In this document: positions 2,879-19,375 of the stretch, piece by piece
Layout: each line of letters starts with the position of its first letter
Position numbering within the stretch: the first letter of the stretch is position 1
Sequence record: PX068455.1
DNA from: a phage
Length of the DNA: 64,000 nt
Reading direction: 5' to 3' (one strand)
The notes under the pieces: model-generated
Database searches by the model: none
What the model was told of the DNA's origin: nothing
The model's input: only the letters and a program-made list of their open reading frames with translations
Translations under genes and position numbers: made by a program

Positions 2879-2902
2879 AGAAAATCCCCGCCGAAGCGGG
2901 GG
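2879..2902 (-). terminator. intrinsic terminator, CCCCGC-UUCG-GCGGGG hairpin plus U-tract
   Basis: Perfect 6-bp GC stem with UUCG tetraloop on the minus-strand transcript, followed by AUUUU; lies between 2915..3295 and 2365..2865. Confidence 0.6.
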
Positions 2903-2914
2903 AGGTCTTAGAAA

Positions 2915-3295
2915 TTAATCGTAGTGTGCCAAAATCTCTCCATCGTTGCAAGTTCCCTCTACAAAGTTATGAAGATTCATGCACTCATCTTGATAGAAGA
3001 ATTTACCGCTTTTCAGCCGTAAGCCAAACAACTCCGCATCTCCACGATGGCAAGCCTCTACAAGTTCATAGATTTCATACGGCAACTCTCCGTCGTCATG
3101 GAAGAACCCAGCCTTATCGTTGACATAGATGAAGAAATAATCACTGCTGTCGCAAGCGTCCAATATTTTAAACCAGATTTCATCTACATCTTTTTCTCGG
3201 ATATCGATCACGCAAGTGGAGCTGCATTCGTACTCCTTCTCCGGCTCCTCGGTCAATACCACCAGGTAGTTTCCCCGCTTACCTACTTTAGCCAT
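2915..3295 (-). CDS. hypothetical protein
   Basis: 126-aa ORF tightly packed in the minus-strand operon; no motif recognised. Confidence 0.4.
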   Translation of the reverse strand: MAKVGKRGNYLVVLTEEPEKEYECSSTCVIDIREKDVDEIWFKILDACDSSDYFFIYVNDKAGFFHDDGELPYEIYELVEACHRGDAELFGLRLKSGKFFYQDECMNLHNFVEGTCNDGEILAHYD

Positions 3296-3304
3296 ACAAC
3301 CTCC

Positions 3305-4489
3305 TTAAGCTTTAGCCAAAATGGCGCTAAACTCTTCACCAAACTCTTTTACAATCTTCATCAGGTTTGGGTATGCTTTGATCAGCTGAGCAACGATCTT
3401 GTCACGACCTTTACCGATAAGCAAGGCATTTCCTAAGGCATTAGGTTTCATCATCGCCATAAAGACTGAAAATACAAAATCTCGGTTCTCGTCCTTGAAG
3501 TTTTCCCAAAGGAAATCGAGAAAGTTTGCCACACAGCTAACAAGATCTTCGTCGGAGATACTTGCATTTTCCATCATATTACGAATAGCGATGCAACCTT
3601 CAGATCCAAGAATCCACAAGATGTCTGGCTGTTTAGGACCTACGTATTCTTTGCAACCTCCTGCCATAATCCGACCGATTTCCGGTAAGTTGCGTTTCTT
3701 GGTGTGGTAAGTCCAGATCTCTACCGCTGCAGTGTGACCAATAGCACCTTGCAGAAGAACACGGGCCATAGCGTCAGAAATAATACCGCTGTCAAAATCG
3801 TGCAAGATATCAGATGCAGCAACCCAAGATCGCGGTGTGGCAAAAGATGGACAATTAATCTCAGCCATGGCCTCATAATTATCGATAGCTGATGGAACTC
3901 TTTTCAGATATCCAATTACAGAGGAGTGCACCCCATTAAGGAATGCGTAGTCCTCAATAAACACCTCTGCATTGCTTGTAACCTCTACAATGATAAAACG
4001 GTTAGCCAGAGGGGCTTCGAGCGCCGAAAGAACCGCACCATCTGTAGAACGGTTACCAGCAGCCACAAAAACAGACCCCTTAGGGAATGCATAAGTACCG
4101 CACTTGTGGTCAAGCATAATTTGCATTGCAACCTTTTGTAGGTAGTTATCTGCATGAGTGAGCTCATCCAGAAAGATAATTCCGCTCCAGTCAGGATCCG
4201 CAGGCCAAAATTCTGGAATTGCAAACACTGTACGTGTAGTTCCATCCGCTTCTACAGGGATAGGTAGCCCAGATAAGTCGGCAGGATCTTTATCTGACAG
4301 CCGCACGTCAACAAGGTTGTCATCTCGCTCACCGAACATATTATCAGCGATCTGCTTCATCACCTGGCTTTTACCTACACCCATTGGTCCCAAAATTAGG
4401 ACAGATCGGCTATGACGTTGGGCAAACTGAATAATAGCTGGCAACTCACGGACAGTGATTTGACCACTTTCGAATACGTTTCTTGACAT
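3305..4489 (-). CDS. AAA+ ATPase, MoxR/CobS-like
   Basis: 394 aa; Walker A GPMGVGKS, Walker B IIFLDE, compact single-AAA layout. Confidence 0.7.
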   Translation of the reverse strand: MSRNVFESGQITVRELPAIIQFAQRHSRSVLILGPMGVGKSQVMKQIADNMFGERDDNLVDVRLSDKDPADLSGLPIPVEADGTTRTVFAIPEFWPADPDWSGIIFLDELTHADNYLQKVAMQIMLDHKCGTYAFPKGSVFVAAGNRSTDGAVLSALEAPLANRFIIVEVTSNAEVFIEDYAFLNGVHSSVIGYLKRVPSAIDNYEAMAEINCPSFATPRSWVAASDILHDFDSGIISDAMARVLLQGAIGHTAAVEIWTYHTKKRNLPEIGRIMAGGCKEYVGPKQPDILWILGSEGCIAIRNMMENASISDEDLVSCVANFLDFLWENFKDENRDFVFSVFMAMMKPNALGNALLIGKGRDKIVAQLIKAYPNLMKIVKEFGEEFSAILAKA

Positions 4490-4758
4490 TAGTAAAAGTC
4501 CTCTACTTGTGTGTAAGTGTTTTCAAAGTTTTCCAAAACAGATATCACATCGGATCTGTCAATATCATACGTGACTCTCCAGTTGTACGCAACCCTTTCT
4601 GCTGTTGCCTCTTCTGGCGCTAGTCGTCTGCTGGCATAAAAGAGTGTTGGAGTACACTTTCTTGCTTGCCCTCTAACTTTCCCATAATAATATCTGTGAA
4701 TATCTTTGTCAAAATTTAACTCTTTTTCTGCACGAAGTTCATATTGCTGGTATAACAT
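4489..4758 (-). CDS. hypothetical protein
   Basis: 89-aa ORF, start overlaps stop of upstream gene. Confidence 0.35.
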   Translation of the reverse strand: MLYQQYELRAEKELNFDKDIHRYYYGKVRGQARKCTPTLFYASRRLAPEEATAERVAYNWRVTYDIDRSDVISVLENFENTYTQVEDFY

Positions 4759-4802
4759 CTCTACTACTCCTTAAGCAGCATCCTTGCCGCCATTCCTGCC
4801 CA

Positions 4803-5183
4803 CTAAAATGCAGTCCGAATCCAGACAAGGTTCTTATCTGCCCAATCATAGAGGCAAGTCATTGCACTATTGAATTGCTCACACGGAGGATAATCTTCTT
4901 CCATCTGACGCATAGCAGAGCCTTGTGGGTAAAGCTCCCGTGCTGCAAACCACGCGTCGTAGTCATCAACGGTGTCGAAGTAGTATACAACATCCTCCAA
5001 CTCAGGATCGAACTTTGAACTATCAGGATCCAGTTGTTCAGGGAACTTGGAGCGTAACTTGCCAGCCACAATACTTGCCAACTCGCTAACATGCTTATTG
5101 TCCCACTCCATTAGCTTCCCGTCTTCAGTGATGCGTCCTAACCACTGATCATGAAGGTCAACTGTTGTCTTCCACCGGGCCAT
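4803..5183 (-). CDS. hypothetical protein
   Basis: 126-aa ORF in operon context. Confidence 0.4.
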   Translation of the reverse strand: MARWKTTVDLHDQWLGRITEDGKLMEWDNKHVSELASIVAGKLRSKFPEQLDPDSSKFDPELEDVVYYFDTVDDYDAWFAARELYPQGSAMRQMEEDYPPCEQFNSAMTCLYDWADKNLVWIRTAF

Positions 5184-5185
5184 TA

Positions 5186-5443
5186 TCAGTCCACCTCTTC
5201 TTCTCGTTGTAGTTCAAGATACCCGTAGGTCTGGACATCTTCAAGGGTGTGGAACTCCCCATCTGCCGCTAATGCACGAACAACTTGGCACAAAACCTTA
5301 TGAGGAACTTCATCCAGACCAAGATTCAGTGCAGGGAACACCTTATCTAAGTCAACAAAATAAATGAACTGTAGCTCACCAGCTTCAAAAGGTGTATCTT
5401 CAATAAACATCTTCTCGGCATTAGTCAAGATCTGCACTTTCAT
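5186..5443 (-). CDS. hypothetical protein
   Basis: 85-aa acidic ORF. Confidence 0.35.
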   Translation of the reverse strand: MKVQILTNAEKMFIEDTPFEAGELQFIYFVDLDKVFPALNLGLDEVPHKVLCQVVRALAADGEFHTLEDVQTYGYLELQREEEVD

Positions 5444-5799
5444 TATTCTACCTCCTCTTCTTTTTCTTCGGCATTAGTTTCATGGCTACCCCACTCTGGA
5501 GTTTCCACCTCGATAGTAAACTCACGCACTACACGGTAATTGCCCATGAAGCGCTCCACTTCGTCAAGGCTTATGGAGAGGCCATTGGCAACCAGGTCTG
5601 CAGCACCCTCTTCTACCAGGTAGTCCAGATTGGCTTCCAGAGCTTCAGGTTCAAACCCTGTCAATGCAATCAGATAACCTTTCCCTTCATCAGGGAGGAC
5701 AATACATCCCAACTGATTTTCTTTAAAAAGGCAGTGACCATCATTATTGATTGGGTGTTCATTGCAGTAAATAGCTGCACGATAAGTAACTTTAGACAT
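5443..5799 (-). CDS. hypothetical protein
   Basis: Track ORF 5443..5820; ATG at 5797-5799 (MSKVTYRA) has an AGGAG RBS and is preferred over the upstream ATG. Confidence 0.4.
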   Translation of the reverse strand: MSKVTYRAAIYCNEHPINNDGHCLFKENQLGCIVLPDEGKGYLIALTGFEPEALEANLDYLVEEGAADLVANGLSISLDEVERFMGNYRVVREFTIEVETPEWGSHETNAEEKEEEVE

Positions 5800-5812
5800 C
5801 GGCAAGGTCTCC

Positions 5813-6091
5813 TTAGGCAATTGTCATTTTACATTCTTGAAATTTTAACACAAGACGGTGATTGTGTCTAGTGTCTAAAAAGATTTTTTCAACCATCAGG
5901 CACACGGTATAACCGTCCATCTTGTTGACAACAAAATCTCCAGGGTAAGGGAGAGTGTCCCCTGGGCTGGGAAAGCATAACCCGCTCAGAAAGGCATCAT
6001 CGGTGGTGGACTTAATGGATTTCCACACACTATCTGCCTGAACATTCTCACCAACATAATATACACTACCACATGACTTCATCATAGTCAA
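5813..6091 (-). CDS. hypothetical protein
   Basis: 92-aa ORF. Confidence 0.35.
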   Translation of the reverse strand: MTMMKSCGSVYYVGENVQADSVWKSIKSTTDDAFLSGLCFPSPGDTLPYPGDFVVNKMDGYTVCLMVEKIFLDTRHNHRLVLKFQECKMTIA

Positions 6092-6987
6092 ATCTCCGCG
6101 TAAATTAAACTGGAATCAGTATACTTCTTTAATGGGTAAATATCCTGTCCATAGATGCAATCATTAAACACCTCATCTACCCAAAGGCTACGCTTATATC
6201 CCATCATTTCTAAAACACTCATCTCTTCTTCGGTAAACTTATCACCACTCTTGCAAGATGTCAATACCTCATTTTGAACTCTTGCTACCTCGAATCGGTT
6301 ATTGGCAATATCGCTATTGGCGATCAAATACTCACCTAGAGGGTGTGCGGCATTAAAGATGCACAGTGGACGGCTGACGTAATAGTCTCCGGGTGTATAA
6401 AAATTGTTGAGGTCTTTCACTAGAACATTCTTATCAGTCACTTCATTTATAACATCATGCATATCGCACATCTTTATATGTTTGAGGATTCCATCTCCCA
6501 TCACAAAATAAAAACTTGCTGAGACACTTTCGGCATAGATCTTACTAGATCCGTTGTAGTTGTATTTTACTCGGATGCTAACGGGGGTTTTTCCTGTCGC
6601 GTTAGCCATCATCCAAAGAAATGGCAGCTCATACTTCTCCTCTGAGGAAACAAAAGGTGAGGTAGCCAGAGATCGAAAACCTCCAGAGAAGTTGAAAGTT
6701 ACAGAACCGCTCCGGCGGTATGATACCGCGTATTCTACTTTTATATCGACGTACCCATTGGAATAGGTGTGTCCTTCATTATCTAAATATGTCCACTTAT
6801 CAGACCCAGATACCAATCTACGCTCAATAACCTTCATCACTACAGGAATTAGTGGGTTGGTACAAACCGCTTTTGAAGTAGCTTTATCATCTAAAGCCTC
6901 GTAAATTGCAGAAAGGATGTCCCCAGCTGAAAGATTGGTTGTTATGTCCTGTTTCCACCGCGTACTAAAACTGTTAAGATTTGCCAT
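6088..6987 (-). CDS. hypothetical protein
   Basis: 299-aa ORF, first gene behind the divergent promoter region; GGAG RBS. Confidence 0.45.
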   Translation of the reverse strand: MANLNSFSTRWKQDITTNLSAGDILSAIYEALDDKATSKAVCTNPLIPVVMKVIERRLVSGSDKWTYLDNEGHTYSNGYVDIKVEYAVSYRRSGSVTFNFSGGFRSLATSPFVSSEEKYELPFLWMMANATGKTPVSIRVKYNYNGSSKIYAESVSASFYFVMGDGILKHIKMCDMHDVINEVTDKNVLVKDLNNFYTPGDYYVSRPLCIFNAAHPLGEYLIANSDIANNRFEVARVQNEVLTSCKSGDKFTEEEMSVLEMMGYKRSLWVDEVFNDCIYGQDIYPLKKYTDSSLIYAEI

Positions 6988-7027
6988 AAGTAAGTGCTCC
7001 TATGTTAGTTTTCTTTCGAATGGGTGC

Positions 7028-7056
7028 ACTATATTGTGGAGTTAGAGTAAAGTCAA
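7028..7056 (-). promoter_or_regulatory. sigma70-like promoter (TTGACT-17-TATAGT) for the 6987-to-386 minus-strand operon
   Basis: -35 TTGACT at 7051-7056 and -10 TATAGT at 7028-7033 (minus-strand sense), 17-bp spacer, in the divergent intergenic region 6988-7063. Confidence 0.45.
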
Positions 7057-7063
7057 CACGTTT

Positions 7064-7609
7064 TTGATGTTGACATCTGTTGAGACAATTGATACGATTT
7101 CTTCACTTACAGAGCACGAGAGACGACGCATGAATCTTGAAAAATATTATACACCAGAAGAGTTAGAGCGCTTGCTCAAAAAATATAGACGCAAACAGAA
7201 TAACGCACGGAAACGAGATATAGAGTTCGACCTGTCATGGGAAGAATACCTCCTATTTGGTAAAAAACTTTTAGGAGATGGAGTATGCGACTATACCCTT
7301 ATACCTTTTGACATGCACACAGATGAAAACGGGCTGGGGAATCCTTTCTACCCATCTTTGGAGCGTATAGATGATGAAGGTCCTTACGCAATTGACAATT
7401 GTTGTGTGGTAGGGTTGAGGTGCAATGCTCTGAAAGACTGTCTGGTAGATAAAAAGACTGCAATCCTGATTAAAGACAAAACTGATCGAAAAATTGTCCA
7501 GCAGATGATGCTCCACCTGAGTGAAGAGCGTATGGAGAAGTTGAAAGGTGATTATACTTTTGAAGATTTCATCTTGCAATACGGGACAGAAGAAGACAGA
7601 AGAAATTGA
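7064..7609 (+). CDS. HNH-superfamily endonuclease-like protein (degenerate motif), upstream part of a split gene
   Basis: 181 aa; C-x-Y...SLERID..GPYAIDNC..C.N..K pattern typical of phage HNH modules with the His residues replaced; stops within a 10-bp tandem duplication. Confidence 0.45.
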   Translation: MMLTSVETIDTISSLTEHERRRMNLEKYYTPEELERLLKKYRRKQNNARKRDIEFDLSWEEYLLFGKKLLGDGVCDYTLIPFDMHTDENGLGNPFYPSLERIDDEGPYAIDNCCVVGLRCNALKDCLVDKKTAILIKDKTDRKIVQQMMLHLSEERMEKLKGDYTFEDFILQYGTEEDRRN

Positions 7610-7988
7610 AGAACAGACATCTGAAGAGGAAAAAGAGCCTCAGGTGGTTGAAGAGGAGATTGCAGAAGAGGTTCCTGCACTGCCTGATGATGTTGAGATT
7701 GCTAAGGCTTACACTTTCTATTGTCAAACGTTCTACGATGCAGGTATGAAAGTTGACCTGTCGTTCAGCCAATTTAAGAGTTCGTATATTCGCAAATGCT
7801 GTGCTTTAACTGGTGAACGTCTCGGAGCTGGACTTAAACCACTGTTGGTGACCGACTGGAATAAAGGTTTCACTAAAGGAAACTTTATGGTAGTATCTCC
7901 AATTATGGAGAAAGCTATGACAGATCTTATGAAGACCACCCGCATGACAATGACCGAGTTGGCAGGTATTTTCAAACACGTTAAATAA
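7548..7988 (+). CDS. second HNH-like module ORF (downstream part of split gene)
   Basis: 146 aa; acidic linker then KVDLSFSQF...C.LTGE...WNKGFTKGNFMVV resembling the module in 7064..7609; would be in frame with 7064..7609 if one 10-bp repeat copy were removed. Confidence 0.4.
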   Translation: MIILLKISSCNTGQKKTEEIEEQTSEEEKEPQVVEEEIAEEVPALPDDVEIAKAYTFYCQTFYDAGMKVDLSFSQFKSSYIRKCCALTGERLGAGLKPLLVTDWNKGFTKGNFMVVSPIMEKAMTDLMKTTRMTMTELAGIFKHVK

Positions 7989-8021
7989 TGACAGGGGCCA
8001 TTGGCCCCTTCTGGAGTTTTA

Positions 8022-9482
8022 ATGGATAGCAGAAGTTCAGAAATCATTGCCTCACAGAAAGATGATGCCCTGAGAATGTTGCAGGCTGCACGTATGTATC
8101 TCCTTGAAAAGCTGCCGTTTTATGGCACACTGCTGTCAGGATTGCAGTTCGTAGAAAACCACACATGGTGCTCCACCATGGCAACCGACCATAAACGCAT
8201 CTATTACAGCCCTGAGTTCATTATGGGATTGGCTGATGAACGCAAGGTTATTCTTAAGGCTTCTCTAACTGACGAACAGTTTGAGATGGCTGAGGTTTTC
8301 TATTCCCTCAAATCTGTGAAAGAGGTGGCTTTTCTTCTGTCACACGAGGTGGGGCATATTATCTGTGATCACCTGGTCCGTGGTAAAAGCTTCGAGCCGG
8401 AACTGTTTAATATTGCTTGTGATCATGTTATCAACACAGGTCTTGTGGTTGACTTTAGCAAGCCTCCCTGTGTTTTCTTCCCGAAGGGGAAAAGCACTAC
8501 GTTCGTGAAAGGTAAGCCTTTTGGTTTCTTAGCCAGCTGCTACTGCGACATGAGGTTTCATGGATGGATTGCTGAGAACGTCTATGCGGTTCTTGATAAG
8601 CAAAGAGATCAGAATAACGGTAAAAGTAAGAGCGGTAAAGGTGAGAACTCTCAAGGGGATAAGCGACAAACCGATGATCACATGAGTGGGAACGGTGGCA
8701 CCAGCGATGATCTTGGAAAGGCTATGGGGTATGATCAGCCACAACCTGTAATCAGCCAATCTGATAAAGATCAGGCCATGCAAGACTCTGGTGACATGCT
8801 GGAAGCAGCAATGCAAGCTTCCGGAGGTCGTTGCCCCGAGGCGGTGCGTGAGTTTGTCAAGAACAGAGGTAAGCCTGTAATCAACTATATAGACATCATT
8901 AAGCAACGCATGTTGTCTAAACGAAAGGCCGAACTGACCTACAGAAAACCTGGTCGCCGATCTGGGTCTTTGACCAGCACAATGCGAAAAGTTGGGGCTA
9001 TAAACAAGAACCAGCACGTTATTGTTCCTGGTCGTAATCCGGAAAACACCATAGATATTGTGGTAGCTTTAGACGTTTCTGGCTCGATATCTCAAAGAAC
9101 TTTAAAGAAAATGTTCAATGAAATCACCGGATTGTGCAATCTGTATAAAGAGTTTAAGGTTACAATGTTCTGTTGGTCAACTGAAGTCGGAGAGGTTAAA
9201 GTATATACTCGCGGCAACATAGACGAAATGATCAACTATGAGGTCCACTCAACATGGGGCACAACAGCTGCTTGCGTGTTCGAGTATCTGGATGCCAACA
9301 TACCAAATGCAAAAGATGTCATCGTCCTGACCGACCTATACTTTGAGCATAACTTTGAACAAAAGGCTGTTGACAACAAGTGGAAAAAGTACGATACTTT
9401 ATGGGTTCTCACCGAAGGGTATAATAAAAATTATATCCCTAGCTTTGGTAAAACTGTGGAATTAATCGAGTACGCTAAGTAA
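8022..9482 (+). CDS. metallopeptidase-like plus von Willebrand factor A (vWA) domain protein
   Basis: HExxH (SHEVGHIICDH) in N-half; vWA MIDAS motif VVALDVSGSIS in C-half; track ORF starts at TTG 8001, ATG 8022 with GGAG RBS preferred. Confidence 0.65.
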   Translation: MDSRSSEIIASQKDDALRMLQAARMYLLEKLPFYGTLLSGLQFVENHTWCSTMATDHKRIYYSPEFIMGLADERKVILKASLTDEQFEMAEVFYSLKSVKEVAFLLSHEVGHIICDHLVRGKSFEPELFNIACDHVINTGLVVDFSKPPCVFFPKGKSTTFVKGKPFGFLASCYCDMRFHGWIAENVYAVLDKQRDQNNGKSKSGKGENSQGDKRQTDDHMSGNGGTSDDLGKAMGYDQPQPVISQSDKDQAMQDSGDMLEAAMQASGGRCPEAVREFVKNRGKPVINYIDIIKQRMLSKRKAELTYRKPGRRSGSLTSTMRKVGAINKNQHVIVPGRNPENTIDIVVALDVSGSISQRTLKKMFNEITGLCNLYKEFKVTMFCWSTEVGEVKVYTRGNIDEMINYEVHSTWGTTAACVFEYLDANIPNAKDVIVLTDLYFEHNFEQKAVDNKWKKYDTLWVLTEGYNKNYIPSFGKTVELIEYAK

Positions 9483-9488
9483 GAGAGG

Positions 9489-9755
9489 ATGTTATTTATG
9501 GCAACAGAGGTAGTAATTAAAGCTGAACGCCCAGTTAAAAAAGCTATCAACACGTTCCCTGTGGGGACCATTGTGAGCATGATCACAGAGTCAGGTCGTG
9601 TATCTACGCTGCTGATTGTGAAATCTGCATGTTCTTCTTGTGTGTGGGCTTACGATCTGGACGAGAAAGAACTAAAAGATTTTGTTGGGGAGCTGAAAGC
9701 AACCGAGCTCGATGCTCGTATCGAAGTATTTGGTGAAACTATGGAGGAAGAGTAA
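9489..9755 (+). CDS. small hypothetical protein, paralog family member 1
   Basis: 88 aa; shares F-x-x-G-[TE]-[IV]-[VL] then acidic, hydrophobic, Cys pattern with the next two ORFs. Confidence 0.4.
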   Translation: MLFMATEVVIKAERPVKKAINTFPVGTIVSMITESGRVSTLLIVKSACSSCVWAYDLDEKELKDFVGELKATELDARIEVFGETMEEE

Positions 9756-13738: not shown

Positions 13739-16700
13739 TTAACGAGAAAAGGTTGCGTAGGCTTCTAGACGATACTGCTGGTCACCAGGGAACATAACAC
13801 CTATAGAGGCTGTCCCTAGAATCCTGCCTTCCCTTCCAGACTCCATTCTGAACCCTACCCATCCTGAACTCCTTGCAGCCTCGATGTTGTCGCTATACCC
13901 GAAAGTGGCAAGATCGTCAACACCAGCCCCAAACAGCAACTGAAGCTGACTTCTCGGAAGCCCTATAATTTCAGGAATATACGCACCAAAGTACACCATC
14001 TGCCCTACCTTAGGACCGCTGCCGTACTCCATCGGTTTGCTTGTAGAGAAAGTCTTCATACCAGAAGTACCTGCCGGATTAGGGTATGCCCCGTTTGTTG
14101 CTGTACCTATCCACATTCTCCACTGTGGTGCCATCTGTTTAACAGTAAAAGATGTTGAGGACGTTTTGCGGCCTGCATCATCTGTAACTACAAACTTTAT
14201 GGTGACATTCCCAGTAGCTTTAAATGTTACCAGTCCTGTGGTAGCATCCACTGTTGCAATGTTGGTATTGCTACTTTCCCAAGTCTTTCTAATCCCAGAT
14301 ACGTTGGAAGGGGTAATAGAAGGTTCCTGCATCTGCAGTTTACCGCCCACAATCCCTATGCCGTTGCCAGGATTATACAGTGCACCAACCTCGTCTATAA
14401 TGTTCCCTGCTTTGAGACTATACTTCCTTGAGAAATTGTAGGTTCCGTTATAAGTGTGTGTCCCTGAGAAGGTGACATCTGCCTTCCCGTAAGAGATGCA
14501 AACCAACGCATACTTCCTGTCAGGCAACGTTTCTCCAGTCTCTGGGTGAGTTTTACCTACCTGGAACACACTCGGGTCAGTAGAGTCGTGACTATCACTA
14601 ACGGAGCTTGGACCGCCCATCAACTGTGACAAACAATTCCTTACCCATGTCCAGTTATTATCGCTGGAGAAGTCCACAGTCAAATCAAACACAACCCACT
14701 CATTTGGCTTCCACACAGGTGTTGTAATGGACTTGCCTACACCACCTCCTTGGAGTGTTGCCGACTGTTCAGTGATCAGGGCCGCATAGGCCAGAGTTCC
14801 TAAACTCAGAGTCTGGCTTGCTGTCCTCACTACCTTAGAATCAGCATCTGTGAAGTTGTTGATGATTTGGAATGTGCCATAAGTGTTTTTACAGGTAATT
14901 CTGGCGTTCAGTGTGTCAATCTTCCTCACATCTGCCATAGCAGTGTTAGACACAGAGAAGTCAGAAGCTTTAGCTGAGTTTGCCGCAACAGCAGGATCAA
15001 CGTTAAGAGTTGCGTTGAACTGACAAGCAGGAGTAACCAGTAGCTTGTTATCACCTATTTGCTTCCATGAAACACTTTGAACAGGGAGATTCCATTTAAT
15101 ACCTGAGAAAACCTTAGCAACCCTTGGCCCCAAAGCTCCAGTCCTGTTGTCTTTACAGCACATAGACATGGTGATCGTTGACGGAGTGGCCTGACCAAAT
15201 AATTGCTGTGCTTTTGCAGAGGACATAGTGTAGAAATTGTCCTTAACAAACTCATCAGCAGCTAAAGATCCATCAGCTCTCCACCACTGAACCTGATACC
15301 CTGTTTTGTCCCAACCACCGACCTGCTTCAAGTCCTCCCAGGAGATTTCCAGATCCCCGGTGGTAGGATTGATTGCAGCAGTTCCTGGTGTTCCAGATGA
15401 CCATATTGGAATATCGAACCACGCTGGTTTAACCGACTGCACTGCGCTGGGACCTATTGCGGCAGCAAGTTGCTGGCCCATCAATACGCGAGCATCTTTC
15501 ACCAGACCCCACTCAATCATAGACCCAGAGTAACCTTCTTTCTTGTAGGCTGAGGATCCGTTCAAATGGATGAGTCGGCTTGTGCCAAAGTTATGTGCTC
15601 CACCACCGTTGTCGTCTGCAAAATTGGTTATGATTCTGTCCCTGATATTTTTCCATGCCCTGCCTCCAATCTCGTAGTCATGGTCATAACATCTTTGCAG
15701 TGTTGTCCAGCAAATGATCGCCATCCTTCTACCATTGCTGAAGCCAAAGGCCTGATCGTTAAGCTCTCTCCACAAGTAGCAGTTGGTGGTCCACATGGCC
15801 CTATGAATGTTAAACCAGTTTATAGATTTGGCTGAGTTGTTCCACTGAGTCCCAGGTAATTCAGGCCATACTGCATTAACCAGCATGTCTTCTGTTCCTG
15901 CATCAACCAAGAACCCTCTCACCTTCTTACCCATGCCTACCCTATCTTTTGCAATCCAACTGCCAAACAATCTCAGTTTTGGACCGTAGACAACATCTTC
16001 CGGATGCTCAAAAGAAATATATTTTAGGTATATTGTAGGGTCACCATAGGTGCCATCACAAACAGCTTTGTGCATGTTCTCACCAAGGTCTAGACGAAGT
16101 CCTGTTACAACTCTAGACGTGTCGGTGAATTTGTCTGTTAAATCAAACTCATACCACCACCAACCTGCACCCAACAATACTTTCTTACAACGCTGTGCAT
16201 CTGTATCAGATATTCTCTTATCGCCTGCAAAAGGTGAGTCAGCAAACTGATAGTGCAGAGCAACCTCAAAAGGATGTGTGGATGTCCCGTTTTCTGCAAG
16301 AACTTGTTTACCTATCAGGTCGCACTTAATGATCATCACAACACGTTTGTATCCGTTTGTTACCGGAATTTGCATGGACATGGATGTCCCATCCATGTTT
16401 GATCTCAGTGCAGTCATGATGATATAAGGGTCAACGGCATTGCCCAAAGTCTCAGGACCGGGGATTATCTTATACTTCTTGACCTGCCCCATGATGTAGT
16501 CACTTGCGTAAGTTGCCTCATTCAAGCAAGATCCTCCACCAGGTAACTCACCAGGTCCCCAGAAAAATGCGCCGTAACAGTTGTAGAACCACTTGTTAGG
16601 ATCGTATTTATTCTTGAAGGTCTGAACCTCGTTGGCCTGTTTTGTCAAGAAAACCTGCGTGTCTGTGAAGATTGCAGGGTTTACTCTCGCCTGTCTTGGA

Positions 16701-19375
16701 GGGTAACCTGTAGTTTGGTTAAACCACAAATTACAAGAGTAATCCCTCATATAGTCATAATCAGAGTATTTGTTTACATCTTCGTTCCAACACATGTTTA
16801 GGTTGGTACCGCCCATGCATACAATATATTCTGCGACATACTTATCACTTCTGGTAGGAATACCTATGAACCATCTGTTAACAGGCTCATCCCAAGCTGT
16901 GCGCTCATCTTTAACGCAGATAGCAATCCAGTCATGTGTTCCTGTTTTCTTGCACACATCTCGCTTCATACCATAGTAGAACTCTTTAGTATTCGGCTCA
17001 GGTGCATTTATCAGGTAACTCCATGCCTGATTTGCATAAGTTCCATTGGTGCGTGGATCATGATCAAAGGCATACATGATGATCCTTTCCCCACCAAGAT
17101 GTTCGCCAAGAGTAACTTTGACATTCACATCGCCGTAACCATTGCGAACAACATCCATATTGTCAATAGAGATGCCTCTGGGAGTGTAGGCAATCTTCAG
17201 CGAGTTATCCTCACTAGTGCCACCAAGTGTAATCCCTATGTTGTTTGTTGTCCCGTCGGCATATCTTACTGTGGCTTCCCAGCGTATTCCGAAATATCCT
17301 GCATCATGGCTAACAATTTTCAGTGTACGAGCACCAGAGTTAGGTTTTCCAGGATCAGGCCAAGGATTTGGATGTTCATGGACAGTCAACGATGTCCCGT
17401 TTTGCTCGTTGACCTGCAACATTTTACCGCCTCTGCCGTTAGGGTTGAACTCCCACAAGGCTTGTGTTTTCACAATATTGTCATACGTGGTACGTCTCTG
17501 ATCGTAGATCTCCTGAGTCACATCGTAGGTTACAGACCCGGCATCCATTCTATGGAGTCGTACTATATACGATGTATCGCCTTCTACAGCAGGTTGAGCT
17601 GCGTTAAGCCCGAAGTATACAGTATCGTTGACATGGAACTGTTTGTTTCTACCGACAGTATGCCACTTGCCGTTGGACGGGTACGCTGGGACGATAGTGT
17701 TCCAGTTCAAAGTCCTTGTTGTGTGGGTTCTGCCTGTGCCATGTTTGTCATGATAGGTTATTTTTACAGAGTACAGTCCACGTCTGTTAACATTTCTGTT
17801 ATATTGGGTAACAACAACTTCGTTGGCCCCGCCGTGGTTCCAGTTGGTGGAGAATTGGTAATTTGCATCTGTAACAACCGTGCCTGCAGCATTTACCAGT
17901 TCAATCTTGTCAATAATGAACGTAGCCCCCTCTGGCTGAGGCTTCAATTTCATCTTGACCGTGTCACCAATGTAAATATTGCTAACGCTGCTAACACCGT
18001 TAACTTCGAAAATATCATCAACACCCCAACTGTCTACTGGGACATTTTTATACCAATTCTCAGGAACCTCTGTGAACCCCTGGCTATTAAGTCTGCCGCC
18101 AAACAGGTTGTTAGATCCTGCAAAACTTCCCCTTGGGATGCCTGACCACCAAAGTTTACCATTAACAACAGTAAAGGTTCCTAAGAAACCTTCTCTGTGG
18201 ATGCCTTGGAAATAAACACTCTCTGTCCAGCTAACTGGCAGGCGTTGCTCAACATATTTAGCTGTAGCAAGAGCTTGATAGTGGATAAAATTAGCCCTAG
18301 GGCTATTGTTTGCAGATTGTGCACCAATATCATTACACAAGTTGCGAGAGAATCCACGATACTGTTTAGTGCCATTATTGAAGAAAATGCCACTTGTGCC
18401 ATATCCACGAGCCATTATCACCTCATGGGTGTAGGTGATATTTAAGGAACGCCATGTGTCATCTCCCCAGACGTCTTGCCCGTAGAATACGTTAACAAGC
18501 TGCTGGTCATTGGGTTTGTGCATCCTCTGTGTGGCAATTATTGCCCCGTTAGGGCCACACATAAACCCTTTCCACTCCTCATCTGCAGGAATGCCCCTCA
18601 AATCGTTACGAGTAATCTGCACAGGGGGCCAAACAAGGTCGTTTCTACTGTTATTTCTCAGAAAGTCGTATCCAGCAATCCAGAAACCCCTAGGACCACC
18701 GAAAATAACAGAATTGTCATGCACCTCGCAGTTGATGCTTGGGTTTTTCCAAGGTCCTGTTTCAGGATTTTCCGATGTCTCACCAATCTTCACAGGGGTT
18801 GCATGCTGATTTTTATCTACATGTAAAGATCCGTAGGTGTTGTTACCAGATCCATACAGGTTAAGTATGCCAGTACCTTCTGCCTCTGCAATAACCCAGA
18901 CAGTGTTGTTAATACCGCCCATCACCTCAATAAGGCGTTCTGGGTGGGTGTCAAGGTGCAATCCTTTAACAATCTGCTCTGGGAGTGGTGTCCACTCGTT
19001 TACGCAAACATCATTACCGCCTGCAGCAGTGGATCCGATAAGACCTGCAGTGCAGCCGATGTAGAAAAACTGGTTATCAAAAGTCCGGATCACAAACGCG
19101 CGGTCTGCTCTCCACACATGATCAACATTCCAGGCTGTTTCGCTCGGATAGTTTATAGGGCTACGATCCCCAGTGCGGCACTCTCCGAACTTGTTATAGC
19201 CGGTAATATTAAGCTGACCATCATCAAAAAGTATAGCTAAGCTATTTACATAGGATACTGTGTTGCTTGTACCATCACTGTTGTCTATTGGGTATGACAG
19301 AACAGCAAGTTCCTTAATTCCACCCCTCTTATCGAGGAAATGACGACCAAGTTTTAGCAAAGGGATTGGAAGCAT
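13739..19375 (-). CDS. giant virion protein (1878 aa), probable tail fibre/tailspike with Ig-like domain
   Basis: Uninterrupted 5.6-kb ORF; Gly/Asn-rich beta-type repeats; Big_2-like Ig segment NVSGIRKTWESSNTNIATVDATTGLVTFKATGNVTIKF near the C-terminus; sits in the tail-fibre cluster. Confidence 0.55.
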   Translation of the reverse strand: MLPIPLLKLGRHFLDKRGGIKELAVLSYPIDNSDGTSNTVSYVNSLAILFDDGQLNITGYNKFGECRTGDRSPINYPSETAWNVDHVWRADRAFVIRTFDNQFFYIGCTAGLIGSTAAGGNDVCVNEWTPLPEQIVKGLHLDTHPERLIEVMGGINNTVWVIAEAEGTGILNLYGSGNNTYGSLHVDKNQHATPVKIGETSENPETGPWKNPSINCEVHDNSVIFGGPRGFWIAGYDFLRNNSRNDLVWPPVQITRNDLRGIPADEEWKGFMCGPNGAIIATQRMHKPNDQQLVNVFYGQDVWGDDTWRSLNITYTHEVIMARGYGTSGIFFNNGTKQYRGFSRNLCNDIGAQSANNSPRANFIHYQALATAKYVEQRLPVSWTESVYFQGIHREGFLGTFTVVNGKLWWSGIPRGSFAGSNNLFGGRLNSQGFTEVPENWYKNVPVDSWGVDDIFEVNGVSSVSNIYIGDTVKMKLKPQPEGATFIIDKIELVNAAGTVVTDANYQFSTNWNHGGANEVVVTQYNRNVNRRGLYSVKITYHDKHGTGRTHTTRTLNWNTIVPAYPSNGKWHTVGRNKQFHVNDTVYFGLNAAQPAVEGDTSYIVRLHRMDAGSVTYDVTQEIYDQRRTTYDNIVKTQALWEFNPNGRGGKMLQVNEQNGTSLTVHEHPNPWPDPGKPNSGARTLKIVSHDAGYFGIRWEATVRYADGTTNNIGITLGGTSEDNSLKIAYTPRGISIDNMDVVRNGYGDVNVKVTLGEHLGGERIIMYAFDHDPRTNGTYANQAWSYLINAPEPNTKEFYYGMKRDVCKKTGTHDWIAICVKDERTAWDEPVNRWFIGIPTRSDKYVAEYIVCMGGTNLNMCWNEDVNKYSDYDYMRDYSCNLWFNQTTGYPPRQARVNPAIFTDTQVFLTKQANEVQTFKNKYDPNKWFYNCYGAFFWGPGELPGGGSCLNEATYASDYIMGQVKKYKIIPGPETLGNAVDPYIIMTALRSNMDGTSMSMQIPVTNGYKRVVMIIKCDLIGKQVLAENGTSTHPFEVALHYQFADSPFAGDKRISDTDAQRCKKVLLGAGWWWYEFDLTDKFTDTSRVVTGLRLDLGENMHKAVCDGTYGDPTIYLKYISFEHPEDVVYGPKLRLFGSWIAKDRVGMGKKVRGFLVDAGTEDMLVNAVWPELPGTQWNNSAKSINWFNIHRAMWTTNCYLWRELNDQAFGFSNGRRMAIICWTTLQRCYDHDYEIGGRAWKNIRDRIITNFADDNGGGAHNFGTSRLIHLNGSSAYKKEGYSGSMIEWGLVKDARVLMGQQLAAAIGPSAVQSVKPAWFDIPIWSSGTPGTAAINPTTGDLEISWEDLKQVGGWDKTGYQVQWWRADGSLAADEFVKDNFYTMSSAKAQQLFGQATPSTITMSMCCKDNRTGALGPRVAKVFSGIKWNLPVQSVSWKQIGDNKLLVTPACQFNATLNVDPAVAANSAKASDFSVSNTAMADVRKIDTLNARITCKNTYGTFQIINNFTDADSKVVRTASQTLSLGTLAYAALITEQSATLQGGGVGKSITTPVWKPNEWVVFDLTVDFSSDNNWTWVRNCLSQLMGGPSSVSDSHDSTDPSVFQVGKTHPETGETLPDRKYALVCISYGKADVTFSGTHTYNGTYNFSRKYSLKAGNIIDEVGALYNPGNGIGIVGGKLQMQEPSITPSNVSGIRKTWESSNTNIATVDATTGLVTFKATGNVTIKFVVTDDAGRKTSSTSFTVKQMAPQWRMWIGTATNGAYPNPAGTSGMKTFSTSKPMEYGSGPKVGQMVYFGAYIPEIIGLPRSQLQLLFGAGVDDLATFGYSDNIEAARSSGWVGFRMESGREGRILGTASIGVMFPGDQQYRLEAYATFSR

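Follow-up and report, generated by a model that had tools for sequence, protein, structure and literature searches.

A MoxR-class ATPase and its candidate vWA-zincin partner, encoded on opposite strands in an rV5-like coliphage, and their possible part in counter-defence

The DNA considered here, which we call the window, is a 64,000-nucleotide stretch of phage sequence record PX068455.1 and belongs to an rV5-like coliphage (Vequintavirus, Vequintavirinae). Between positions 3305 and 9482 it encodes a MoxR-class AAA+ ATPase and a protein that combines a zincin-like domain with a von Willebrand factor A (vWA) domain. An earlier note, made from the sequence alone, had placed the two genes on opposite strands, 3.5 kb apart in divergent blocks, and had taken their products for partners. 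The coordinates it gave for both genes were borne out (Table 1), and the gap between them measures 3532 bp. Over the 6.6 kb around the pair, the window matches Escherichia phage ECP2309 at 100% identity and more than 100 rV5-like phages at 97-98%. Because there are hundreds of homologues, and this stretch is matched at 90% identity or more by 122 phage records, the two open reading frames (ORFs) can be taken as genuine genes and not chance ORFs. The pair type is already known, and in rV5-like phages the genes are an ordinary feature that earlier annotation has covered: they are labelled 'MoxR ATPase' and 'putative metallopeptidase' in the GenBank records of rV5, GAP31, PVP-SE1, Bas54, and others. 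Literature searches on DUF2201 with MoxR, or on rV5 with 'MoxR ATPase', returned nothing relevant.

We assign the ATPase to the MoxR class on four independent lines of sequence and model evidence, namely, the domains of its homologues, a family profile, the hairpins of its structural model, and a structural search. Across 33 homologues, the Walker A and Walker B motifs, N146, R164, and R220 show no variation, the invariant residues being G37, G39, K40, S41, D108, E109, N146, R147, R164, and R220. Homologues at 33-37% identity over about 85% of the length pass Pfam with AAA_3, AAA_5, or bpMoxR (scores of 32.4 for AAA_5 and 32.1 for AAA_3 in the relative L003, 38.1 for AAA_3 in Sulfurovum CS9, and 24.9 for AAA_5 in an N4-like gp24). 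The window ATPase itself stays below the Pfam threshold for every AAA family (AAA_5, 16.7 bits vs 22; bpMoxR, 15.1 vs 27) and has no AAA_3 match in the same search; its Pfam MoxR-class membership is thus transitive, through these relatives. A profile of the 33-member family matched midasin, an AAA_5 protein, best in the PDB (E 1.6e-10). In the AlphaFold2 model (predicted local distance difference test score, 85), a beta-hairpin at residues 76-89 (strands 76-81 and 84-89) between beta2 and beta3 corresponds to the helix-2 insert, and a short pre-sensor-1 hairpin precedes beta4. The top 17 Foldseek matches of the model in the PDB are all NorQ/CbbQ (best E 7e-8; TM score about 0.6-0.68 on the target), and CHU_0153 MoxR (2r44), midasin, dynein, and McrB are among the further matches. 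A single-sequence PDB search returned only P-loop matches to Clp and p97, and NCBIfam holds no family for either protein of the pair. In PHROGs the ATPase falls into family 1297 (2e-110). The earlier description of the protein as MoxR-like thus stands, and the protein did not turn out to lie outside the MoxR/CobS clade. The ATPase is presumably hexameric.

The second protein, whose likely start is an ATG preceded by GGAG, passes Pfam with both of its domains. DUF2201_N (PF13203, 'putative metallopeptidase') covers residues 98-314 with 98.8 bits against a cut-off of 23.2, and is followed by DUF2201 (PF09967, 'VWA-like') at residues 346-481 with 43.8 bits against 26.4; this is the architecture of the COG3864-type 'predicted metal-dependent peptidase'. 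The N-terminal HExxH motif that the earlier note had described was found as HEVGH, and the metal-ion-dependent adhesion site (MIDAS), the lack of which would have told against the note, is complete: D351, S353, S355 (the DVSGS motif), T414, and D438 do not change in any of the 24-25 homologues compared, of which the most distant have 24% identity. The model has a Rossmann-like vWA fold that matches NorD, the midasin MIDAS domain, BchD, and BatB among many vWA domains, and this domain dominates the fold-search lists. In the zincin-like domain, residues H108, H112, R120, N130, A132, D134, and N138 do not vary, and conservation of E109 and H117 is 90% or more. The HExxH motif lies on helix 99-118 of the model, and H117 and D134 are candidates for further metal ligands. 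A single-sequence PDB search with the protein gave nothing, and Pfam Peptidase_M48 (E 0.01) stayed below threshold.

Between the two domains lies a basic linker (8922..9048, residues 301-342) modelled with low confidence. It contains the motif TYRKPGRRS at about residues 306-314, for which the family-wide consensus is TYRRPxRRS, with R312 at least 90% conserved and P336 invariant. The linker is a candidate for an element that engages the pore of the ATPase or for an autoprocessing site. In the vWA domain of about 140 residues, a pore-inserting 'finger' could not be identified.

Comparative data strongly support the view that the two proteins are a cognate pair in spite of the split. When 80 viral contigs with relatives of the ATPase (IMG/VR) were scanned with hidden Markov models of both families, 71 loci were informative, and in 68 of them the ATPase gene is immediately followed by a co-oriented DUF2201 gene (median gap, 73 bp). 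In two of the remaining three, an rV5-like and a Seunavirus-like contig, the DUF2201 gene is on the opposite strand, and in one there is none. Annotated genomes agree. The vWA gene adjoins and follows the ATPase gene in Certrevirus CR9 and phage LTH01 (both Vequintavirinae), the two are adjacent in a 578-kb jumbo-phage contig, and in N4-like Ab09 one small ORF stands between the gp24-like and gp25-like genes, both of which the family models recovered. The two families are also distributed nearly alike by genus over 50,697 phage records (ATPase vs vWA protein: Escherichia, 214/212; Pseudomonas, 108/104; Pectobacterium, 26/26; Cronobacter, 17/17), and they diverge in parallel, the identity of ATPase and vWA protein to those of the window being about 53/47% in the Seunavirus type, 35/35% in Certrevirus, and about 27/22-28% in N4-like and jumbo phages. 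The partnership that the earlier note had inferred is thus borne out by conserved adjacency elsewhere. The cellular homologues, which share 32-42% identity with the ATPase in the loci retained, come mainly from Campylobacterota (Sulfurovum, Sulfurimonas, Sulfuricurvum, and Arcobacter); about two thirds of their loci have an adjacent DUF2201 partner, and in 26 no DUF2201 neighbour was detected. In Sulfurovum CS9 (L138, 5944..6948), the ATPase gene overlaps that of an upstream 462-aa protein and adjoins arsB; no Pfam domain was found in this upstream protein, nor any resemblance to the vWA family (hhalign probability 0.1%).

Since the 68 loci, the annotated genomes, and the co-distribution agree, adjacency of the two genes is most likely the ancestral state. 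Among the groups examined, the split is limited to Vequintavirus and Seunavirus (in Seunavirus GAP31, as here, an anti-sigma gene lies between the ATPase and vWA genes), and because only these two show it, the split is probably a lineage-specific rearrangement. An ancestral operon with the ATPase gene followed by the vWA gene would have been divided in that lineage, probably by an inversion within Vequintavirinae. The separation of the pair by a divergent promoter, as the earlier note had it, therefore holds for this phage and its close kin and is derived, not general. In the window both genes are still no more than 2.5 kb from one shared, putatively bidirectional promoter region. The recognition of the split genes as cognate, and of the split as confined to these two genera among the groups examined, goes beyond the papers and records that could be searched.

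A function for the pair is suggested by phage MaxBurger (Bas54), whose ATPase (bas54_0063) is 100% identical to that of the window, as is the rV5 'MoxR ATPase', and whose vWA-zincin protein (bas54_0055) is identical at 479 of 486 residues (99%). The genes are split in the same way, and nothing at the sequence level distinguishes the two phages here save a 119-bp deletion in the window, described below. The sole experimental data available on these proteins come from a 2025 preprint on HIDEN-SEQ, which reports saturated transposon libraries of Bas54 in which both genes are 'non-essential' on E. coli K-12, with insertions at 60/64 and 81/86 TA sites, respectively (bioRxiv 10.1101/2025.11.20.689424). 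Its authors built knockouts of bas54_0063 and bas54_0140 and assayed them for plaques; the bas54_0063 knockout was reported to be unable to overcome the defence system DS-28. DS-28, known from the DefensePredictor study, pairs a hypothetical protein with a HEPN family nuclease (PMC13092281 supplement). That the target is unknown, as the earlier note had it, is thus partly outdated. In the resampling comparison of K-12 with CFE311, bas54_0063 has a log2 fold change of -7.23 (adjusted p 0) and bas54_0055 one of -2.20 (p 0.0009, adjusted p 0.00896), and small genes beside the ATPase gene are without phenotype in CFE311, both bas54_0062 (log2 fold change 0.24), which is unaffected, and the adjoining bas54_0064 (bioRxiv 10.1101/2025.11.20.689424). 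In the preprint's table, bas54_0063 and bas54_0055 are the sole significant genes among the 26 early-region genes 0042-0067. In the preprint text the ATPase figures as an anti-DS-28 gene on its own, and bas54_0055 goes unmentioned; that the partner vWA gene shares the host-specific phenotype of the ATPase is a pointer beyond the papers and records that could be searched. Another preprint on phage transposon mutagenesis has nothing on the ATPase or vWA genes. In the same HIDEN-SEQ table, the RecD-like DNA helicase gene bas54_0068 is strongly depleted (log2 fold change -6.32, adjusted p 0), on which the preprint text is silent; it belongs to the same minus-strand block, downstream of rIIB, and its orthologue lies just outside the left end of the window.

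The closest known relatives are gp24 (AAA+ ATPase) and gp25 (vWFA protein) of N4, which belong to the core set of roughly 14 genes in N4-like phages (Schitoviridae), are middle transcripts, and have their function listed as unknown (PMC4193335, PMC7650795, PMC2784036). The window ATPase matches the N4 ATPase locus (tblastn E 7e-21), and the vWA-zincin protein matches the 'N4 gp25-like protein' of Ab09 (E 4e-17 over 93% of the query) and shares the DUF2201_N plus DUF2201 architecture with proteins of this type. Both sets of genes lie in non-structural early or middle regions. However, the N4-like genes are co-stranded and adjacent or one small ORF apart, identity to the rV5-type proteins is just 22-27%, and the rV5-type proteins are longer, the ATPase having a further helical segment at its C terminus and the vWA protein having inserts in the zincin domain and linker. 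A pair of a MoxR AAA+ ATPase and a metallopeptidase-vWA protein was also described in group 2.2 jumbo phages (Iyer et al. 2021, Viruses 13:63; PMC7824862). The two-protein architecture is the same, and homologues of both proteins are found in jumbo phages that include Escherichia phage A4, GAP32, G17, and the 578-kb contig. Whereas that paper proposed a role in virion assembly or processing, the transposon data on an rV5-like phage point to a dispensable, host-dependent role in counter-defence.

Two other systems resemble the pair from further away. MoxR-vWA pairs are widespread, and the known targets are few, such as Rubisco, cNOR, and LdcI with respiratory complexes. NorQ/NorD and CbbQ/CbbO (the CGN subfamily) supply the best structural matches to the ATPase, and their partner proteins have a vWA domain with a MIDAS. 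They differ in that sequence identity is 15-22%, NorD and CbbO are much larger and have no zincin domain, and the targets are metabolic enzymes (cNOR and Rubisco). CobS and CobT are subunits of aerobic cobaltochelatase and are present in some cyanophages and pelagiphages. The earlier note had likened the window pair to CobS/CobT-like phage pairs, and the general logic of a MoxR-like AAA+ protein with a vWA protein is indeed common to both, but the partner architecture is different and there is no cobalamin context here. Membership in CobS or CobT was rejected, neither being found among Pfam hits at E <= 0.1 or NCBIfam hits at E <= 0.01 for either protein. The comparison is one of analogy; by sequence, the true family is the MoxR plus DUF2201 pair of the N4 gp24/gp25 type.

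The surroundings of the two genes are those of other rV5-like phages. In the annotation of ECP2309 and MaxBurger/Bas54, the minus-strand block comprises a putative fucosyltransferase gene, four small ORFs, an 89-aa ORF, the ATPase gene, a 126-aa ORF, and then genes for a cell-wall hydrolase, rIIA, rIIB, and a RecD-like helicase. The plus-strand block, in the annotation of ECP2309 and Bas54, begins with a Srd-like 'anti-sigma factor', continues with the 'putative metallopeptidase', and ends in many small ORFs. A 1878-aa ORF (13739..19375, minus strand) opens the next minus-strand block. The coordinates of the features are collected in Table 1.

Table 1. Features of the MoxR ATPase and vWA-zincin locus in the window (a dot marks a feature without strand)
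Feature	Position	Strand	Remarks
Terminator-like hairpin	2886..2901	-	CCCCGC-TTCG-GCGGGG with a T-rich tail; follows the 126-aa ORF, which is downstream of the ATPase gene
MoxR-class AAA+ ATPase	3305..4489	-	394 aa, ATG start
Sensor-2 R220 ('ATPRSW')	3830..3832	-	ATPase
Candidate Arg finger R164 ('PLANRF')	3998..4000	-	ATPase
Sensor-1 N146	4052..4054	-	ATPase
Walker B IIFLDE (I104-E109)	4163..4180	-	ATPase motif
Walker A GPMGVGKS (G34-S41)	4367..4390	-	ATPase motif
89-aa ORF	4489..4758	-	Upstream of the ATPase gene; its stop codon and the ATPase start codon share 1 nt (ATGA)
Best sigma-70 match in the region	4684..4712	-	TTGACA-17-TATTAT, 11/12, inside the 89-aa ORF
Divergent intergenic region	6988..7130	.	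Back-to-back sigma-70-like promoters, consensus matches
P(-), putative promoter	7058..7028	-	TGTTGACT-N17-TATAGT
P(+), putative promoter	7068..7098	+	TGTTGACA-N17-TACGAT
Srd-like 'anti-sigma factor' gene	7131..7988	+	Between the promoter region and the vWA gene; broken in the window
Perfect GC-rich hairpin	7993..8009	.	AGGGGCC-ATT-GGCCCCT, between the Srd-like stop and the ribosome-binding site of the vWA gene
Zincin-like (DUF2201_N) plus vWA (DUF2201) protein	8022..9482	+	486 aa, within ORF 8001..9482
HEVGH (HExxH)	8343..8357	+	DUF2201_N domain
Low-complexity linker	aa 200-228	+	vWA protein
vWA domain	~9051..9479	+	Roughly 140 residues
MIDAS DxSxS (D351-V-S353-G-S355)	9072..9086	+	vWA domain
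MIDAS T414	9261..9263	+	vWA domain
MIDAS D438	9333..9335	+	vWA domain

The overlap of the 89-aa ORF with the ATPase start suggests translational coupling. The ORF belongs to PHROG 13164, a family labelled 'ATPase', and no Pfam domain was found in it. It was considered as a third component and set aside, as it is without a domain and its Bas54 orthologue, bas54_0062, is without phenotype; from the unaffected state of bas54_0062 in CFE311, it is probably not required. Some labels in the databases are errors that propagate: 'ATPase' for the domain-less 89-aa ORF is one, and 'HNH endonuclease' for PHROG 1314, the zincin-vWA family, is another, which recurs in ECP2309, FV3, the JES2013 RefSeq record, and many N4-like records. 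Sixteen unannotated 'Campylobacter phage' records (MG065647-MG065682; host given as C. jejuni) match window positions 3000..9600 and are about 97-99% identical there to E. coli rV5-like phages. Their host assignment looks doubtful, and contamination or mislabelling is possible.

The window differs from its relatives in the Srd-like gene, in which a frameshifting deletion of 119 bp at about 7594 (7594/7595), between two direct copies of GACAGAAGAA, splits the 'anti-sigma / anti-termination' gene into ORFs 7064..7609 and 7548..7988. ECP2309, whose sequence shows no other difference (100% identity), retains the 119 bp, as do all the other relatives examined, and the deletion junction is contiguous in none of 93 related phage records (0/93). 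A natural, microhomology-mediated deletion is plausible because the Bas54 orthologue of the gene is non-essential, with 55/55 TA sites hit (bioRxiv 10.1101/2025.11.20.689424).

The earlier note had described a divergent promoter region at 6988-7063. The start at 6988 holds and promoter-like sites are present, but the true end is at about 7130: the end at 7063 came from a mechanical TTG start, and Bas54 annotates an ATG equivalent to window position 7131. P(-) and P(+) have the extended -35 sequence TGTTGAC in common, and their -35 boxes form an inverted repeat (7052..7074). The motif TGTTGAC-N17-TATAAT is reported as a conserved putative early promoter of Certrevirus, a sister genus (PMC7344957). 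The best sigma-70 match, which is annotated as 'Sigma70-type promoter' in phage ECML-10, could be the ATPase gene's own promoter. The minus-strand unit that runs from the divergent promoter likely ends at the terminator-like hairpin. The GC-rich hairpin ahead of the vWA gene has no T-tract on the plus strand and so does not qualify as a canonical terminator; it might instead act in RNA processing or stability, or as a partial attenuator.

We think it probable that the pair is an ATP-driven remodeller used in counter-defence, a module of the N4 gp24/gp25 type that is accessory in rV5-like phages and is not a virion-assembly factor. The ATPase would be the motor, a MoxR-class AAA+ ring, and the vWA domain would dock on it, by analogy with NorQ/NorD, CbbQ/CbbO, and midasin. 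In the model for NorQD, each hexamer takes a single vWA adaptor, their contact is of the 'finger-in-pore' kind, and the MIDAS mediates contact with the target (PMC13036017). Likewise, the MIDAS would grip an acidic residue of the target protein, ATP hydrolysis would remodel the captured target, and the fused HExxH zincin-like domain would possibly cleave it. Expressed early or in the middle of infection, such a machine would be an accessory that helps the phage to overcome DS-28. A more specific form of the proposal has the two proteins assemble into a protease, powered by ATP and guided by the MIDAS, that captures a DS-28 component, or a trigger of DS-28 made by the phage, and dismantles or cleaves it. 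This form is put forward tentatively and is rather unlikely to hold.

Several points weigh against a counter-defence machine made of both proteins. Their physical interaction, the hexamer, the contact of the MIDAS with a target, proteolysis, the identity of the target, and co-regulation are all things that we infer. The window ATPase fails the Pfam AAA_5 and AAA_3 thresholds. No solved zincin homologue was found when the profile of the N-terminal domain was compared with the PDB, the best match being weak and only to the active-site helix of M48/BepA (E about 1.3); protease activity of this domain is a prediction, and the literature searched reports none. P(-) and P(+) are putative, being consensus matches only, and a scan of the region gave 20 promoter-like sites where 15.1 +/- 4.6 are expected by chance. 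The second anti-DS-28 gene named by the preprint is bas54_0140 and not the vWA gene (bioRxiv 10.1101/2025.11.20.689424). Depletion in CFE311 is 4.6-fold for the vWA gene vs more than 100-fold for the ATPase gene, figures that come from a sheet, 'Data S6', titled K-12_vs_CFE303, in which the logged command names the 311 library. The ATPase may thus act largely without the vWA protein, and, because CFE311 differs from K-12 in many ways, the effect on the vWA gene may be unrelated to DS-28.

These unequal phenotypes, and the pairing of the ATPase with bas54_0140 in the preprint, would fit functional uncoupling, in which the split marks a lost partnership in Vequintavirus and Seunavirus, the vWA-zincin protein has a separate role, and the ATPase works alone or with bas54_0140 or the adjacent 89-aa or 126-aa proteins. 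The opposite strands and the distance of 3.5 kb point the same way, as does the lack of a detectable DUF2201 neighbour for about a third of the Campylobacterota homologues of the ATPase. We nevertheless find uncoupling doubtful: in the split lineages sampled both genes are kept, intact, and diverging in parallel, the MIDAS and HExxH residues are still invariant, both genes sit beside one bidirectional promoter region, and both are significantly depleted in one host, the sole such pair in the early block, and the small genes next to the ATPase gene, bas54_0062 and 0064, are without phenotype. A role as virion-assembly chaperone, with the pair helping to assemble tail or head and the zincin processing structural proteins, was proposed for the same domain pair by Iyer et al. 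(2021) by analogy with a MoxR-vWA pair of Acidianus two-tailed virus (PMC7824862). It gains some appeal from the very complex tail-fibre sets of rV5-like phages and from the N4-like roseophage RPP1, in which some virion protein genes are near the gp24/gp25 homologues (PMC4193335). For the rV5-like lineage it is disfavoured, and in our estimate improbable, because of the dispensability on K-12, the early-region location, and the timing of the N4 middle genes. On K-12, about 94% of the TA sites in the two genes carry insertions, as against none in the listed genes for head, sheath, and tube and in most of those for the baseplate; the pair is encoded alongside an Srd-like gene, rIIA/B, and a helicase gene, downstream of sigma-70-type promoters and outside the structural module; and N4 gp24/gp25 are middle transcripts. 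Metal chelation or insertion of the CobS/CobT kind, the pair being an auxiliary metabolic one that puts a metal into a cofactor or enzyme, would draw on the fact that CobS/CobT, BchI/BchD, and NorQ/NorD are all MoxR-like/vWA pairs, on BchD and NorD among the vWA fold matches, and on NorQ at the top of those of the ATPase. It is very improbable: the Pfam hits at E <= 0.1 include no CobS/CobT family, the partner carries a zincin-like HExxH domain that chelatase subunits lack, the annotated flanks have no cobalamin, tetrapyrrole, or nitric-oxide reductase genes, and the phenotype depends on the defence system of the host.

To our knowledge, no function has been assigned in some 20 years to the phage MoxR-vWA module with a fused zincin, a module that is core to N4-like phages and also occurs in Vequintavirinae and many jumbo phages. 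The comparative evidence for pairing, together with the published requirement for the ATPase against a HEPN-nuclease defence, turns the question into a directly testable hypothesis and marks the vWA-zincin gene as the obvious partner. Should the pair act as an ATP-powered protease on DS-28 or its trigger, it would represent a mechanistically new, energy-dependent class of anti-defence machine, and, the module being core to N4-like phages and common in jumbo phages, it could account for a conserved phage module that has long gone without an assignment.

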